IMG/VR virus record: IMGVR_UViG_3300032280_000753
Location: 77,403-141,402 of that record
Source of the DNA: a virus
Taxonomy: Duplodnaviria > Caudoviricetes
Reading direction: 5' to 3' (one strand)
DNA length: 64,000 nt
The notes below the pieces were generated by a model, which was given only the letters and a program-made list of their open reading frames with translations, was not told the DNA's origin and did no database searches. The position numbers and the translations under genes were made by a program. Below, piece after piece: positions 75-7,532 of the stretch. Position 1 is the stretch's first letter; each line of letters starts with the position of its first letter.

Positions 75-2123
75 TCACATTACGAAAACTTTACCAATAG
101 ATGCACCAAGAATAATTTCTAAATCACCTTCTATTTCCAAAGCAATACTTTCCAGTTCTGATGTGTTGATTGCTTCACGGGCTTCTTCATCTTTACTGTA
201 ACGAGTTTGTTTGCGACCCCAACCTGCAATTCCAGTAATAATAGATTGTGGCAATGGATTAAACGTAATCTTACCAGTTAAAAGATATTGAGCCAATAAC
301 TCATAAGCAAACTCATACCAATTACGCATTTTATTGTCACGAGCACTCTTCATCGTGCCAAGTTGTTGAGCTACATATTTTAATATTTTGTCTCGACCGG
401 CATTACCTTGGAAATCATATGTTTTGCCATAAACATCAATTCCATAAACTTCTTTTAGTATATCTGCGATACGTTTACGCAAATCTTTAATAAATTCTTG
501 CCATTTCTCCGCTGGAAATCCTCTTCCCCTTGCGAGAGCATGACCTAAACGATGTGCCAATATCCATCCAGATGACATATAACGTTCAGCACCCGTGTTA
601 CTTGTATATATAATCGTTATTGTGTTGCCGTCAGGATCTGGAATTTCATCAGCAGTAAGTTTCATCTTGTCTCTTACGAAACTCATATCAACTAAACCGA
701 CTTCTCTAAACTGGGATTTGTTAACTCTTGGATCGTTAACAAGATACATATCAAAATCAAATGGAGTTTTTTCCCATTGTCGTTTAATCTTTTCTACACC
801 TCGTGGAGACGTTAAGATTTTTCTATCAACATCTCCGAAAGAAGAACGCCGACCCCAATCTCCAACAGTCTTAAACTGTCTGATCGCCATTTCATCTACT
901 TCTTCTGAGAATAGACTTTCCATCAATTTTTCAAGATTAGTTTTATTTTCTTTTAGCATTTCTTCGAATTTTTCTTTTTCACGATTTGCGATTGCAATTC
1001 CAAGTTCTCTTCCGCTTAGTTCTGGAAATTCATTGCTTGAAACTGTTGGCTCATATTCCAAAAATGATTGAATTGTTTTATTTGATATTCCCAAGGCTTC
1101 GGCAAAATATTTCAATGATGCATCTTTTAATCCACTAATTTTATATATTTTTTTCAATTTTAAAGCTATTTCCGGAGAAATGTTTTTGAAGTCGAGTAAA
1201 AATTGAACCTGTCTGATTTCATCTCCAGTATATTTTGCTTTATTTAGTTTTATAGCTACAGCTTTTGCATCATTGTTTTGCAATAAAAGTGCTAAAGCTA
1301 CTGGGATATCACTTGTTTCTGAATATTCTTTGTTAACAACCAGTCCTGGGAATATTTGCTCCCATAGATTGTAACGTTCTATCAGTTGATAAAAACTAAT
1401 AGGACTAATTGCAGATTTTATTCCTTTTAAGAATTCATCTCTTATTCTTTCCCCTGATACTCCTTCTAAAGAATTATCATCGGATATTGCTTCATCTGCT
1501 TCTTTATCTAATTTAGTCCCAAAACGAGCAGCAAATCTTAATGCTCTTAATATTCTTAATCTATCTTCATCAAATCTTTCTTTTGCATTGCCTACGGTTT
1601 TTACAACTTTGTTTTCTATGTCTTGTATGCCGCCTACATAGTCAACAATCTCTTTATTTGAGATATCATAAAAAAGAGCATTCATTGTTAAATCCCGACG
1701 ATTGACATCTTTTTCAATTGTTGCAAATTCAACACTATCAGGTCTTCTGCCTTTTCCTATGTCCGTTCTAAAAGTAGCGATTTCATAATCATTTCCTTCT
1801 GGAGTGATTATTTTAACAATACCAAATGCCCTACCCAATTCTAAAACTCTATACTCTGGATAAGCTTTTAGAATTTCTTCTACTTCATCTGGAGTAGCAT
1901 TCGTGGTTACATCAAAATCTTTAGGAGATTTACCAAGTAATGCATCTCTTACAGAGCCACCTACTAAATAAAAGTCTTTTCCAGAGCTTTTAAAAATATC
2001 TGACAATGTTTCTAAATCAGTCGGCAAAGTAATTTCAAATTTTTGTCTTACTTGTTCTGATAGTATTGTAGATATGTTTAATTCTTGCAGAAGTTTTACA
2101 AGATTAGTTTTATTAATTGCCAT
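75..2123 (-). CDS. cca: Class II tRNA nucleotidyltransferase (CCA-adding enzyme) fused to a ~290-aa C-terminal domain of unknown function
   Basis: Motifs GGSVRD...KDFD (catalytic DxD), RRDLTMNAL, EDRLRILRALRF and ERIRDEF. The GRRF poly(A) polymerase signature is absent. The extension after ~aa 390 contains AHRLGH. Confidence 0.9.
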   Translation of the reverse strand: MAINKTNLVKLLQELNISTILSEQVRQKFEITLPTDLETLSDIFKSSGKDFYLVGGSVRDALLGKSPKDFDVTTNATPDEVEEILKAYPEYRVLELGRAFGIVKIITPEGNDYEIATFRTDIGKGRRPDSVEFATIEKDVNRRDLTMNALFYDISNKEIVDYVGGIQDIENKVVKTVGNAKERFDEDRLRILRALRFAARFGTKLDKEADEAISDDNSLEGVSGERIRDEFLKGIKSAISPISFYQLIERYNLWEQIFPGLVVNKEYSETSDIPVALALLLQNNDAKAVAIKLNKAKYTGDEIRQVQFLLDFKNISPEIALKLKKIYKISGLKDASLKYFAEALGISNKTIQSFLEYEPTVSSNEFPELSGRELGIAIANREKEKFEEMLKENKTNLEKLMESLFSEEVDEMAIRQFKTVGDWGRRSSFGDVDRKILTSPRGVEKIKRQWEKTPFDFDMYLVNDPRVNKSQFREVGLVDMSFVRDKMKLTADEIPDPDGNTITIIYTSNTGAERYMSSGWILAHRLGHALARGRGFPAEKWQEFIKDLRKRIADILKEVYGIDVYGKTYDFQGNAGRDKILKYVAQQLGTMKSARDNKMRNWYEFAYELLAQYLLTGKITFNPLPQSIITGIAGWGRKQTRYSKDEEAREAINTSELESIALEIEGDLEIILGASIGKVFVM

Positions 2124-2155
2124 AGAGTTAAATATTGCGTTTATTTCCTATGACC

Positions 2156-2189
2156 AAAAGAAAAACCCCGATACTTTTAATATCGGGGT
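2156..2189 (-). terminator. Rho-independent terminator ending the tRNA/ncRNA transcript
   Basis: Perfect 9-bp stem ACCCCGATA/TATCGGGGT with a 7-nt loop, followed on the minus strand by TTTTCTTTT. Confidence 0.85.
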
Positions 2190-2191
2190 CG

Positions 2192-2385
2192 AAAAGTGAT
2201 AGTGTAGTCCTGATTTCATCAGATGGGTTAATCCTCCATCGGTGTCTACTTCGCTGCTATCACAACGAGCCTTCCAGGCTTTGGGGCTTTTTTTACGGAA
2301 GCTACTCCGCTTCATTCATAAGGAAACCAACCTTATTAGTCATACAGCTTATATGACACGTCAAACTCCGAGACGTGGAGTGGAA
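2192..2385 (-). ncRNA. Candidate structured ncRNA B (family unassigned)
   Basis: About 190 nt with no credible ORF, richer in GC than its flanks. Consecutive stems CACGUC/GACGUG, GUCAUA/UAUGAC, AUAAGG/CCUUAU, GCGGA/UCCGU and AGCC/GGCU, then a multibranch domain closed by GUGAUAG/CUAUCAC directly before the terminator. Confidence 0.6.
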
Positions 2386-2413
2386 AAATGATTTTCAAAA
2401 CATATTTATATAT

Positions 2414-3058
2414 ATGATAAAAATACAATGCACTTGCGATTTTTGCAATCAATCTTTCTTAAGGGAAAAAAAACAGTTTTATAAAAAACGTAAAAATATT
2501 TTTTGTAGTATTGAATGCTCCAATCAATATTATAACAAAGCAGTTATAACAGAATGCGGACATTGTAAAAAAACAGTTATCAAAAAACTAACAGAATATA
2601 AATCTTCAAAATCTGGCATGGTATTCTGCAACCATTCATGTTCTGCGACTTACAACAATACTCATAAATCTAAAGGAACAAGAGTATCTAAACTTGAAAT
2701 ATTCCTACGAGAAGAAATTACTAAAGAATATGCACAATTAGATATTCGTTATAACGAAAAAAATGCTATTAACTCTGAGCTTGACATATACATACCATCA
2801 CTCAAGCTTGCTTTTGAGCTAAATGGAATATTTCATTATGAACCAATATATGGTTCTGATAAGTTGGAAAAAATACAAAACAATGACAATCGTAAAATGC
2901 AAGCTTGTTTAGAACAGAACATTGAGTTGTGCATTATTGATACTTCATCTTTATCATATTTTAAAAAAGATAAAGCTTTGAAATATTATCAAATCGTTAA
3001 AAACTTGGTTGATGCAAAACTGCCAGGGCTGGGATCGAACCAGCGCCCATTCCGTTAA
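2414..3058 (+). CDS. Putative free-standing homing endonuclease (Zn-binding repeats plus a Vsr/DUF559-like PD-(D/E)xK domain)
   Basis: Two CxxC...FCxxxC repeats and the C-terminal motif ELDIYIPSLKLAFELNGIFHY. The start is more likely ATG 2414 (ATATTTA motif 5 nt upstream) than GTG 2375. The 3' end overlaps tRNA-Asn on the opposite strand. Confidence 0.7.
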   Translation: MIKIQCTCDFCNQSFLREKKQFYKKRKNIFCSIECSNQYYNKAVITECGHCKKTVIKKLTEYKSSKSGMVFCNHSCSATYNNTHKSKGTRVSKLEIFLREEITKEYAQLDIRYNEKNAINSELDIYIPSLKLAFELNGIFHYEPIYGSDKLEKIQNNDNRKMQACLEQNIELCIIDTSSLSYFKKDKALKYYQIVKNLVDAKLPGLGSNQRPFR

Positions 3059-3091
3059 CAGCGGAACGCTCTTCCTCTGAGCTACCTGGCA
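3020..3091 (-). tRNA. trnN: tRNA-Asn(GTT), no encoded CCA
   Basis: Cloverleaf: acceptor TGCCAGG/CCTGGCA, D arm GCTC/GAGC, anticodon arm TTCCG-CTGTTAA-CGGAA, T arm GCTGG-TTCGATC-CCAGC, discriminator G. Confidence 0.95.
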
Positions 3092-3171
3092 ATATAAACC
3101 CAGCATATCATACATCGCACATACTATATACTGAATTCATAACAATGATAGATACAAGTTCCATAAACATT

Positions 3172-3494
3172 ATAAAGTAGGCTTGCTTGCTTAACGCTTC
3201 TATCTGCGTTCTCTTTCCCGAGAAGGGGCTTTGTCACCATTGCTTTTTAGAAAGGAACACCTAAACCCTCATGGTTAGTCAGGTCGCTTCTGACTATCTC
3301 TAATCATCATGTTAGAGCTTATAATATATTATTTCCGATTTACAAGATTGCTCTTGATTTTCCCCAACCAGCATTATAGACCCAAATATTAAATTAGTGT
3401 GCTGGAGGCTACTTACGGCTCCTTTTATCCCATTGCCTTATCGGACCTCAAAGACGATGAACGGTCCATCGGATAGGATAGAAAACTTATCATT
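3172..3494 (-). ncRNA. Candidate structured ncRNA A between tRNA-Ala and tRNA-Asn (family unassigned)
   Basis: About 320 nt with stems UAUCCUAU/AUGGGAUA, GGACC/GGUCC, CCAGCA/UGCUGG, CAAGA-GCAA-UCUUG (GNRA loop), CUCUAA/UUAGAG, UAGUCAG/CUGACUA, ACCAU/AUGGU, UUCUC/GAGAA and AACGC/GCGUU. Confidence 0.6.
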
Positions 3495-3506
3495 TTTTAA
3501 AGAACA
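3495..3506 (-). promoter_or_regulatory. boxA-like antitermination element
   Basis: TGTTCTTTAAAA lies immediately downstream of tRNA-Ala and resembles the rrn boxA (TGCTCTTTAACA) in both sequence and position. Confidence 0.5.
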
Positions 3507-3509
3507 ATT

Positions 3510-3580
3510 TGGATCGGGTGAGAATCGAACTCACAAGTGCGCCGTGCAAAGGCACCAGTTTCCCATTAGCTTACCGACCC
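3510..3580 (-). tRNA. trnA: tRNA-Ala(TGC), no encoded CCA
   Basis: Acceptor GGGTCGG/CCGATCC with the G3:U70 alanine identity pair, anticodon loop TTTGCAC, T arm GTGAG-TTCGATT-CTCAC, discriminator A. Confidence 0.93.
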
Positions 3581-3597
3581 GTTTAACTTACTCAATA

Positions 3598-3626
3598 AAT
3601 ATAGTGGAGCAAGTTAAGTTTGTAAA
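3598..3626 (-). promoter_or_regulatory. sigma70-type promoter of the tRNA-Ala/ncRNA operon
   Basis: TTTACA-17 bp-TATATT. Confidence 0.7.
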
Positions 3627-3714
3627 CTATTTTTTTCAGCCGATCCAAAAAACTGTTAGTGTAGTAAGAAAAAATGCAACACTAATAATAATGATCATTG
3701 TTCTATCTTGCATA

Positions 3715-4542
3715 TCACTCCCCTCCCTTCTTTGCAATTTCCTTAACCTTCTTGCCACCAGGAATACGAACATCGCTATTTAGCAGCTTTTGATTGCGAC
3801 TCTGAACATAGGTGAAGTTCTGAAAATCATTGTGAACTTCATCAAACATCTTCTCTGCTTCATGTGCAGTATGAACATTCCCAATACGATTACGATAGGT
3901 TTCAAGCTTTGCAGTAAGACTTGCAACACTCATGGCAATGTCCATGATAGCCTGGGTATGCTGGGCACGCTTTGCCATAACAAACTCATTAACACTATCA
4001 CTATCAAGAGTAGCCTTTAGTTCAGCAACACGACGACGCTTAAGATCAAGCCATGCGTTTTCATACTGCTTATAAAGATACCTGTAAAGCTTATCGTGAT
4101 CTGTGTTGCTGCCCCAAGTATTTGTTACGTTATAACGAAGGAAATTGCGAACGGAACGCTCTGCATATGCCATACCATTAGGAGCAAATGCAATAACGGG
4201 ATCATCGTGATTAAATGAATTCGTGCTGGAATTAATGGGATAACGAATAACGTGTCCAACGTTGGAGTTGACATATCGGAACGTAACAGAATTAATTGTA
4301 TGATTACCCCACTTGATATTCTCAAAGGTAAGAGTTCGTCCAGCCTGATCATCAATTAGATTATCCATGATGCTATTACCGCCCCAACGATATAGACCCC
4401 GCCGTGAACGAAACTTATTCAGATACTCAATCTGCTCAAGCGTAGTCTTTGATGTAAACTTTTCCTCAGAACAAATACGTTCAAGTAGATTGCTATTGTC
4501 GATCTTAAAAATGGACTTAGGCATATTGTTTTCTTTCTTCAC
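3715..4542 (-). CDS. Hypothetical protein (275 aa, C-terminal coiled coil)
   Basis: Long ORF with a 4-nt overlap with the upstream gene; no recognisable motif. Confidence 0.7.
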   Translation of the reverse strand: MKKENNMPKSIFKIDNSNLLERICSEEKFTSKTTLEQIEYLNKFRSRRGLYRWGGNSIMDNLIDDQAGRTLTFENIKWGNHTINSVTFRYVNSNVGHVIRYPINSSTNSFNHDDPVIAFAPNGMAYAERSVRNFLRYNVTNTWGSNTDHDKLYRYLYKQYENAWLDLKRRRVAELKATLDSDSVNEFVMAKRAQHTQAIMDIAMSVASLTAKLETYRNRIGNVHTAHEAEKMFDEVHNDFQNFTYVQSRNQKLLNSDVRIPGGKKVKEIAKKGGE

Positions 4543-4982
4543 TTAACAGGGGAACAGTAATGACGGGGACTGAGATTTTTGTTCAACTGGATCCAGCCAA
4601 TCTTTTCGTTACAGAGAACCTTGATTTGATAGGCTTCGCAAAGATCATGCGTCGTATTATTAGTGCCGATAATGGTTTTATAGTCAGGCTTTCCAAGTAG
4701 GATAAAGATAGAACCCTTATCGATACGTGTAAAAAATATCTGTTTATTGGGGTAATCTATTAGATCATTACCTCGCCAACGAACATTAGTGCGTCGGCGT
4801 CTCTTACGATTAGTTTCTATAAGTTCAATCTTTGCGCTGGCGATTGCTACAGCGACATTAACTTGGTAAATCCCGCCCATCTTCCAGAAACGTTTGCCGC
4901 CTGGAATATGATCAATATGAGACAACCGCCCACGTTGAGGCAGCTTTTCTGCTATAACGATAGGACTATACACGGGGATCAC
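4539..4982 (-). CDS. Hypothetical protein (147 aa)
   Basis: GTG start overlaps the upstream stop (GTGA); same strand as its neighbours. Confidence 0.6.
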   Translation of the reverse strand: MIPVYSPIVIAEKLPQRGRLSHIDHIPGGKRFWKMGGIYQVNVAVAIASAKIELIETNRKRRRRTNVRWRGNDLIDYPNKQIFFTRIDKGSIFILLGKPDYKTIIGTNNTTHDLCEAYQIKVLCNEKIGWIQLNKNLSPRHYCSPVK

Positions 4983-5131
4983 CAGTTATCAGAAATACGA
5001 TAATCGTGCTTCTTTGCCTTGTCACGACGTGACCGGCGATCTCGCATAGGACCGCCCTTAAGATTGAAAAGCATAAACTCCGTGATAGCGGAGCGGCGCT
5101 TAGGTTCATTCTGCTTACGCTTATTGGACAT
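4979..5131 (-). CDS. Small basic protein (50 aa, MSNKRKQNEPKRRSAITEF...), not in the supplied ORF track
   Basis: ATG 6 nt downstream of a promoter -10 box; the stop is coupled to the next start. Confidence 0.65.
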   Translation of the reverse strand: MSNKRKQNEPKRRSAITEFMLFNLKGGPMRDRRSRRDKAKKHDYRISDNW

Positions 5132-5137
5132 ACAGTT

Positions 5138-5166
5138 AATATAACACGTCATTAACCGGTTTTAAA
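5138..5166 (-). promoter_or_regulatory. sigma70-type promoter, leaderless transcript
   Basis: TTTAAA-17 bp-TATATT with an extended TG; ATG 6 nt downstream. Confidence 0.65.
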
Positions 5167-5170
5167 CCAA

Positions 5171-5329
5171 TTAATCTTTAAAGCCTAACATGGCAAATGT
5201 GCAAAAAGGATATGTTAAACCGAAGCCTATCCAACGGATCCATGTATATTTTGACTTTAAAAGAAAATAACCTCCCCAAGCATATGGAAAGGTTATAAAC
5301 ATCAATAATATTGAAACAAGTTGTAGCAT
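5171..5329 (-). CDS. Small membrane protein (52 aa, two hydrophobic segments)
   Basis: MLQLVSILLMFITFPYAWGG...; the ATG lies just after tRNA-Glu. The longer version in the ORF track overlaps the tRNA. Confidence 0.5.
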   Translation of the reverse strand: MLQLVSILLMFITFPYAWGGYFLLKSKYTWIRWIGFGLTYPFCTFAMLGFKD

Positions 5330-5332
5330 TGA

Positions 5333-5407
5333 TAGCCCCAACGGGGTATGATCCCGTAGTCTCACGCCTTGAAAGGGCGGTGATTTAGCCAATTAATCTA
5401 TGGAGCC
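5333..5407 (-). tRNA. trnE: tRNA-Glu(TTC) with an atypical T loop, no encoded CCA
   Basis: Acceptor GGCTCCA/TGGGGCT, D arm GATT/AATC, anticodon loop CTTTCAA, T arm ACGGG-ATCATAC-CCCGT. Confidence 0.85.
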
Positions 5408-5419
5408 AGTTGATGATTA

Positions 5420-6218: not shown

Positions 6219-7532
6219 TCAATCCGAATTTGACTTTAGTGTAGGGAAGAAGACTACATCACGTAGATTAGGAACGCCAAAGAGAAGCGAAACCATTCTA
6301 TCAATTCCAAAGCCAGCACCACTCTGAGGAGGAATGCCATGCTCCATGCACTCAAGGAAATCTTCCTCAATCATCATGGCTTCATCATCGCCATTAGCTC
6401 TGTCCTGCATCTGCTGTTCCAATAGCTGACGCTGTAGAACCGGATCCGTAAGCTCCGTGTAGCACTTAACCACTTCCCATCCATCCACAATAAACTGCCA
6501 TTGCTGAACCGTATTGGGATCGTTAGAATGCCTTGCTGCCATAGGAGACATATGAGCGGGATAATCAGTTACAAAAATAGGACCAATAAGCTTTGGACGA
6601 ACGTCCGTCTTAAATAGTTGATCCGCTTCCTTGGCACTCATATCATCCGGATAACGTCCAGTATGCTCATTAAACAACTTACGATATTCTACAACTGGTG
6701 CCTTATGCCAAGCTTCAAGCTTTTCCTTAATATCCTCATTATGAGCAAAGGTATTATGCAGCCTATAAATCAAATCTCTAAAAAGCTTCATATTGTCGCA
6801 ATAATCCCAATACGAAGCATACCATTCAAGAGAAGTAAATTCCTGCAAATGAGAAGGATCAATACCTTCATTACGGAACTGCTTGCCAATCTCAAATACA
6901 CGATCAAAACCAGCCGCAGTCATACGCTTAAGATATGTCTCTGGTGCAATACGCAAATAGAAGTCTGCATCAAGAGCATTATGATGGGTTACGAATGGAC
7001 GAGCCTGAGCACCGCTTGCCTGTGGAGTTAGAACAGGAGTTTCTACTTCCATGAAGTTAGTTTCTTCAAAAAAACGACGGATAGAAGAAATCAATTCGCT
7101 ACGAAAACGAAACAGCTTACGGCTTGCCGGATGGATAGCACATTCCAGCCACCGCTTACGTCTCATAAGCTCTGGGTCAGTCATGCCATGCCACTTATCA
7201 GGAAAGCCACCACAAGCCTTCTGGAGCCTCTTAAAGCCCTTGTTAACCAATACGGTGCGCTCACCCGTTGAAGAAGTCCAAACCTCTCCTTGGATGCCTA
7301 CAATGTCTCCGATGCGAGGGACAGAAGACCATTCCTTGAATTCCTCTTCATTCATCATCTTCTTATTGAAAGAAAATTGAACCTTTACATCGCTATTGTC
7401 TGAGATATGACCAAATGCAACGCCGCCCATCTTACGATAAGACAACACTCTGCCAACAAGAGAAATAGGATCTCCATCCTTAAGGTAAGTGATATCATAC
7501 GCCAACTGATTATTTTCGGTATTCCAAAACAT
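6219..7532 (-). CDS. lysS: Lysyl-tRNA synthetase, class II (short N-terminus)
   Basis: OB-fold GRVLSYRKMGGVAF, FMEVETPVL, GAQARPFVTHHNALD, YLRIAPETYLKR, motif 2 FRNEGIDPSHLQEFT, motif 3 GFGIDRMV. Confidence 0.95.
   Translation of the reverse strand: MFWNTENNQLAYDITYLKDGDPISLVGRVLSYRKMGGVAFGHISDNSDVKVQFSFNKKMMNEEEFKEWSSVPRIGDIVGIQGEVWTSSTGERTVLVNKGFKRLQKACGGFPDKWHGMTDPELMRRKRWLECAIHPASRKLFRFRSELISSIRRFFEETNFMEVETPVLTPQASGAQARPFVTHHNALDADFYLRIAPETYLKRMTAAGFDRVFEIGKQFRNEGIDPSHLQEFTSLEWYASYWDYCDNMKLFRDLIYRLHNTFAHNEDIKEKLEAWHKAPVVEYRKLFNEHTGRYPDDMSAKEADQLFKTDVRPKLIGPIFVTDYPAHMSPMAARHSNDPNTVQQWQFIVDGWEVVKCYTELTDPVLQRQLLEQQMQDRANGDDEAMMIEEDFLECMEHGIPPQSGAGFGIDRMVSLLFGVPNLRDVVFFPTLKSNSD

Follow-up and report, generated by a model that had tools for sequence, protein, structure and literature searches.

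The window, as the whole 64,000-nt stretch of DNA analysed here is called, carries long open reading frames (ORFs) nearly all of which lie on the minus strand, has few PHROG matches and appears to derive from a freshwater phage with a very large genome. Its relatives are IMG/VR contigs of 26–129 kb with a CheckV completeness of 6–28%, which suggests genomes of roughly 350–400 kb. Three tRNA genes (Asn, Ala and Glu) were found by ARAGORN within 3019–5408 on the minus strand. A class II aminoacyl-tRNA synthetase gene is located on the same strand and matches Pfam tRNA-synt_2, a family that spans the Asp, Lys and Asn enzymes; given the tRNA-Asn nearby, it may encode AsnRS. The tRNA-Asn gene, a homing-endonuclease-like ORF, a degenerate tRNA remnant, a conserved non-coding module with its terminator and a gene for the CCA-adding enzyme are listed with the helices of the module in Table 1.

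Table 1. Features at the locus, with positions in the window.
Feature	Position	Strand	Basis or remark
CCA-adding enzyme gene	75–2123	-	Adjoins the module past the terminator
Conserved non-coding module, candidate small RNA	2163–2365	-	15 distinct copies, CM 200–277 bits
Intrinsic terminator	2164–2190	-	Terminator scan; three pairs with compensatory change
3´ domain	2196–2263	-	Nested helices and variable tip
3´ domain, outer stem GUGAUAG/CUAUCAC	core 2261–2257 with 2202–2198	-	
3´ domain, GUAG/CUAC	2249–2246 with 2207–2204	-	
3´ domain, CCGAU/AUC-A-GG	2242–2238 with 2214–2212 and 2210–2209	-	Forms in 15/15 copies, two covarying pairs
3´ domain, variable tip	2237–2215	-	Other hairpins in L037, L049, L056, L062
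Hairpin H4 AGCC/GGCU, loop UGGAA	2268–2280	-	Invariant in 15/15 copies
Hairpin H3´ GCGGAG/UUCCGU	2295–2310	-	Replaces the earlier GAAGC/GCUUC
Hairpin H2 AUAAGG/CCUUAU, loop UUGGUUU	2318–2336	-	Predicted in every MFE (three copies)
Hairpin H1 GUCAUA/UAUGAC	2339–2357 (2357–2352 with 2344–2339)	-	Covarying pairs
Degenerate 3´ remnant of a tRNA-Asn gene, outside the RNA family	2366–2385	-	16/20 bases as in the L035 tRNA-Asn 3´ end
Homing-endonuclease-like ORF	2414–3058	+	PHROG HNH and homing-endonuclease families, E down to 9e-13
tRNA-Asn (GUU), CCA not encoded	3019–3092	-	ARAGORN and Rfam, 66.9 bits
Class II aminoacyl-tRNA synthetase	6219–7532	-	Pfam tRNA-synt_2

The module comprises, from 5´ to 3´, a UUUN linker, four hairpins, a long 3´ stem-loop and the terminator, and it shares its strand with the tRNAs. 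Its edges are sharp in all copies; it starts at UUUN-ACGUG (2365) and ends with the U-run of the terminator (~2163). A first-pass annotation made from the letters of this DNA had placed a structured RNA at 2192–2385. These limits did not hold, and the conserved limits are about 2365–2163. The operon terminator that it described at the RNA end is real and was recovered by the terminator scan. This element is a GC-rich hairpin with a 12-bp stem, followed by the U-run in UUUUUCUUUU, and its pairing is kept among the relatives. Pattern scans and neighbour-gene searches yielded 15 distinct copies, all of them on related contigs from huge phages or metagenomes, and each of the seven contigs scanned whole with the CM holds one copy. 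Wherever an intact tRNA-Asn adjoins the module, the module starts 0–6 nt from the discriminator: the tRNA ends directly at the module UUU in L053, L035 and L043, and six bases lie between them in L049.

The sequence words quoted by the first-pass annotation are all found on the minus strand, and much of the fold it drew is conserved in the 15 copies, namely the hairpins GUCAUA/UAUGAC, UAAGG/CCUUA and AGCC/GGCU and the nested GUGAUAG/CUAUCAC (with a 5-bp core, GAUAG/CUAUC) and GUAG/CUAC. About a third of the structural detail was wrong. The helix GAAGC/GCUUC is in the wrong register and produces an A-C mismatch in both L056 and L062, and GCGGAG/UUCCGU (H3´) covaries instead, with GC to AU and AU to GC changes in these two copies (two compensatory pairs). 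Similarly, the inner pairings GAUGG/CCAUC and UGAU/AUCA break down in L037, L049 and L062, and the conserved helix is CCGAU/AUC-A-GG. In H1, pair 15/31 changes from UA to UG to CG and pair 19/27 from AU to UG. Five of the six stem pairs of H2 are invariant, its outer A-U pair becomes G-U once, and a loop G is replaced by A in L062. In the 3´ domain, pair 132/163 changes from CG to UA and pair 133/161 from GC to UA or GU; the 7-bp stem GUGAUAG/CUAUCAC is loose at its outer two pairs, the second of which is unpaired in six copies. H2, H4, GUAG/CUAC and the core GAUAG/CUAUC fit the model but give no test of pairing, because they are invariant or nearly so. RNAalifold applied to the 15 copies finds H1, H2, H3´, H4, GUAG/CUAC, CCGAU/AUCAGG and the terminator unaided and prefers the competing hairpin UCGUUGU/GCAGCGA over the closing stem GAUAG/CUAUC. 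Several further contacts were considered and rejected. A long-range pairing between H1 and the 3´ domain was returned by RNAalifold for four near-identical copies only and is gone with 15, and a loop change in L056 disrupts it as judged by eye. Loop-loop pseudoknots (UUGG/CCAA and GCUG/CAGC) are unsupported by the changes in L062 and L056, also by eye. The idea that the tip loop senses tRNA-Asn through an AAC codon, as a T-box would, is contradicted by L049.

The pairing was scored with the refined structure on a structure-blind MAFFT alignment of the 15 copies, in which 98.8% of the alignment cells pair. Nine pairs are changed on both sides, six outside the terminator and three within it, and none of 500 shuffles reaches this covariation (slid controls, 0–1). 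The covariation among homologues that had been proposed as a check is thus present. All six non-terminator pairs come from L056 and L062, two related sequences, so that few independent events are represented; 13 copies are too alike for a test of pairing, and among them covariation is found in the terminator only. The covariation support for an RNA family is modest. Where paired columns changed, the pair was kept in 12 of 13 cases in L056 and in 9 of 12 in L062, and unpaired columns change in 27–30% of positions. Every one-sided change yields a G-U pair when read on the minus strand, and one such pair is shared by 15/15 copies, which identifies the minus strand as the RNA strand. Folding energy, the other proposed check, does not distinguish the RNA: the region 2192–2385 folds no better than its dinucleotide shuffles (z = -1.5), and neither do three block copies (z = -1.4, -0.04 and -1.65). 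In the window, the plus strand of the region folds better than the minus strand (z = -3.1); the minus strand was chosen despite this value because of the terminator, the orientation of the tRNAs and the G-U pairs.

The joint between the tRNA and the module is occupied by mobile elements. In the window, a 633-nt insertion (2386–3018) is located between tRNA-Asn and the module, is flanked by UUUUG and UUUG and holds most of the nuclease ORF; the last 13 codons of this ORF overlap tRNA-Asn in antisense. This segment is an insertion because the site is empty in L053, a close relative (its neighbouring 275-aa protein is 94% identical) in which tRNA-Asn abuts the module with nothing between. The tRNA remnant next to the module is missing in L053, L043 and L050, and an intact tRNA abuts the module in the first two. 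We ascribe the remnant to a homing-endonuclease cassette that would have broken a tRNA gene. The first hairpin of the first-pass annotation and its possible H-type pseudoknot, ACUCC with GGAGU, had been built from the remnant (2385–2366); they are absent from most copies and were withdrawn from the model. An opposite-strand nuclease gene is also found at the joint in L041, and a same-strand HNH gene in L050, L031 and L047 has its stop codon inside the first bases of the module (AUUUAACGUG, in UUUAA). In the window and these four contigs, the nuclease gene parts the module from the tRNA by 380–630 nt, and the module is intact. Within tRNA-Asn(GUU) itself, a group I intron of ~205 nt follows U35 in L037 (6799–6995, minus strand; RF00028, 66.9 bits) and also in L032 (11098–11400, minus strand). 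A 48-nt hairpin-forming insert in the anticodon loop of tRNA-Asn (L056:5390–5510, L054 and L040:581–700) takes the same position as the intron, is unrelated to it in sequence and has no terminal G. The 3´ exon of the L032 tRNA-Asn was miscalled 'tRNA-Thr(AGU)' by ARAGORN.

L054 and L056 share one tRNA-Asn, with its insert, as far as GGAGUUU. Beyond this point, the module is present in L056 only, and in L054 the identical tRNA is followed by a plain terminator; the module is therefore an optional accessory cassette. The module CM gave no match on 30 loci around related CCA-enzyme genes or on the whole contigs L002, L003 and L005, and blastn of 2130–2420 against 50,697 phage records gave none. 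None of the bacterial genomes searched carries the motif; two chance matches were obtained, one with 18.8 bits (L051) and one with no CM score (L052). These two were discarded together with the chance motif matches L038, L039, L044, L046, L048 and L063–L065. L025, L028, L054 and L060 reach CM scores of 17–31 bits and were not counted as copies; the alignments of two of these four, L054 and L060, were inspected and rest on a common terminator type. Terminators of this type, (A/G)CCC(C/U)GAUG...CAUC(G/A)GGG(U), also stand after unrelated genes (L035:2377–2419, L054:5955–5999 and L060:6450–6491), and their recurrence in these phages accounts for the weak false CM matches. In three contigs, a phage isocitrate lyase gene lies 3´ of the module (L037:5234–6523, minus strand; L043:5921–7186, plus strand; L035:2453–3220, plus strand; Pfam ICL, E ~1e-107).

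The 5´ 130 nt of the module are 98–100% identical in L035, L043, L037 and L049, compared with 65–76% for the flanking DNA. The tRNA-Asn in L043 is ~85% identical, and in contigs with a near-identical 5´ part of the module the neighbour protein is 46% and 41% identical to its counterpart in the window. In L056, however, the neighbour protein is 64% identical and the module only 84%. Identity of the module falls with distance from the joint. The near-identity was initially read as strong selection, a reading that the divergence of the neighbour protein contradicts. Because the history of the module disagrees with that of the neighbour protein, the 5´ 130 nt are concluded to have been exchanged between distant phages. 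Part of the near-identity is attributed to lateral exchange at a hot spot of mobile elements, and much of it is better explained by such exchange than by selection; a plausible mechanism is at hand in the mobile elements that crowd the joint. A non-coding module can thus be swapped between phages whose neighbour proteins are only 41–46% identical, a warning that extreme identity need not mean selection.

The module does not belong to the known families that were searched. At gathering scores, no match was found to Rfam, including GOLLD and ROOL, which the first-pass annotation had singled out for comparison. With Rfam 15 at E up to 10, the window and L056 gave only terminator-driven matches of 9–23 bits against cut-offs of 37–70; the families covered include GOLLD, ROOL, tmRNA, RNase P, SRP, 6S, YrlA, T-box, group I intron and small ribozymes. 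ARAGORN reported no tRNA or tmRNA in the module; the first-pass annotation, likewise, could find no core motifs of tmRNA, RNase P, SRP or group I introns. It is hardly credible that the module encodes a small protein. A 55-aa sense ORF (2148–2315, minus strand) and a 68-aa antisense ORF (2150–2356, plus strand) are open in the window, but in close relatives 1- and 2-nt indels disrupt both reading frames, the start codons are not conserved, and neither frame is preserved among the relatives. Used as protein queries for diverged copies, the sense and antisense ORFs found one match each among 5.8 billion proteins, one of which led to L053. A cis-regulatory leader, either a riboswitch or a T-box-like attenuator for the gene past the terminator, is very unlikely. 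Its appeal lies in the UGGN-type loops and in the terminator, which in the window directly precedes the CCA-adding enzyme gene; L037, L043 and L035, however, have isocitrate lyase as the downstream gene where others have the CCA-adding enzyme, which argues against a leader. Moreover, no conserved antiterminator pairing was found, and no T-box or riboswitch model of Rfam matches at E up to 10.

The earlier reading of a phage noncoding RNA 3´ of the tRNAs is partly supported and agrees with its position, with the strand-specific G-U pairs, with the compensatory changes and with the lack of a conserved ORF; its co-transcription with the tRNAs we infer from the geometry only. We lean towards the reading in which the module would be a folded small RNA of ~200 nt, the last gene of a phage tRNA operon, that acts in trans. 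The module would be transcribed after tRNA-Asn, and its 5´ end would be freed by a cut behind the discriminator of the CCA-less tRNA, presumably of the RNase Z or RNase E type and at the UUU linker. The 3´ end would be made by the intrinsic terminator, and the product would persist as a small stable RNA that could act in trans through the invariant loops and joints UUGGUUU, UGGAA, CAGCGAA and AUGGAGG. The trans-acting role of this candidate RNA is a guess. In the window, release would require the tRNA remnant or another cut, because the 633-nt antisense insertion parts the tRNA from the module.

Two other readings were considered. The module could be a cis-acting 3´ trailer that shields the operon transcript from exonucleases or aids the 3´ processing of tRNA-Asn and has no life after cleavage, which we regard as unlikely but reasonable. 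The module always comes directly after tRNA-Asn and before the terminator, as a trailer would, and a stability element would also need the covariation of the helices. However, the identical tRNA-Asn of L054 with its plain terminator does without the module, the module stays intact where a nuclease gene parts it from the tRNA, and the invariant loops point to sequence-specific contacts. It is also conceivable, if improbable, that the conservation is a DNA-level by-product without any RNA function, in which the joint is a homing site and endonuclease-driven repair copies the flank of the donor. Four kinds of inserts at or next to the joint (the group I intron, the 48-nt insert, the same-strand HNH gene and the opposite-strand nuclease gene) speak for such a process, as do the near-identity of the 5´ 130 nt despite the diverged neighbour proteins, its reverse in L056 and the drop in identity away from the joint. 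Yet the tRNA half across the joint is not homogenised and exists in several alleles that are 85–88% identical. In addition, co-conversion explains neither the compensatory changes nor the strand-specific G-U pairs, nor the surplus of changes that L056 and L062 show in their unpaired columns. Conservation also extends to the 17-nt 3´ strand AUCAGGACUACACUAUC, a long way from the joint. A more ambitious version of the small-RNA reading, to which we give little credence, is that a new family of phage small RNAs, carried as a cassette behind tRNA-Asn, would be passed between distant huge phages by homing-endonuclease-driven recombination for an advantage in infection. If this were true, the RNA may serve as a decoy or inhibitor of a host RNA-binding or tRNA-targeting factor, or alternatively may target the ribosome via the invariant AUGGAGG.

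Among known systems, GOLLD and ROOL are large structured RNAs of unknown function that are often located beside phage tRNA genes. They are several times longer than the module, and their Rfam models gave no match at E up to 10. The homing endonuclease genes and group I introns of phage tRNA regions occur at the joint before the module; they are its neighbours and its probable vehicles of exchange, and the module itself contains neither an intron core nor a nuclease. T4 produces RNAC and RNAD (species 1 and 2 RNAs) from its tRNA gene region, and their roles are unknown (PMC3014915, PMC9697503). Like the module, these small RNAs are encoded within a phage tRNA region in the orientation of the tRNAs, and the T4-type placement at the end of a tRNA cluster is found in L053, L035, L043 and L049. 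RNAC and RNAD, in contrast to the candidate RNA, have been shown to be expressed and processed, and blastn of 2130–2420 among the 50,697 phage records revealed no sequence similarity to them. As summarised in PMC7213987, the 3´ external transcribed spacer of the E. coli glyW-cysT-leuZ tRNA transcript is an sRNA sponge (Lalaouna et al. 2015). The spacer, a functional RNA, is like the module in that it occupies the end of an operon transcript, from the last tRNA to the terminator. It is, however, unrelated in sequence and short, and acts through one pairing site, compared with ~200 nt and six or more helices in the phage module.

The module, most likely a folded small RNA, represents a candidate RNA family of a generally known kind that was previously undescribed. 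Since T4, small RNAs have been known to arise from phage tRNA operons; the module would provide a second, unrelated example. The defined fold, the sharp limits, the presence or absence of the module (L056 compared with L054) and the insertion variants make it a tractable case; with 15 copies, the family is a small one of moderate value.

Two additional segments of the tRNA region were observed. The ORF-free segment 3082–3314 on the minus strand, which separates tRNA-Ala from tRNA-Asn, shows 79% identity in L037 and L049, compared with 65–74% for the coding flanks there. A 32-nt segment at 5151–5120 (minus strand) shows 84% identity to the 5´ end of the module (GACGUGU.AUAU.AA.CUGUAUG), a similarity that may be due to chance (blastn E = 0.6), and coincides in part with a promoter-like site and with the beginning of an ORF for a small basic protein.
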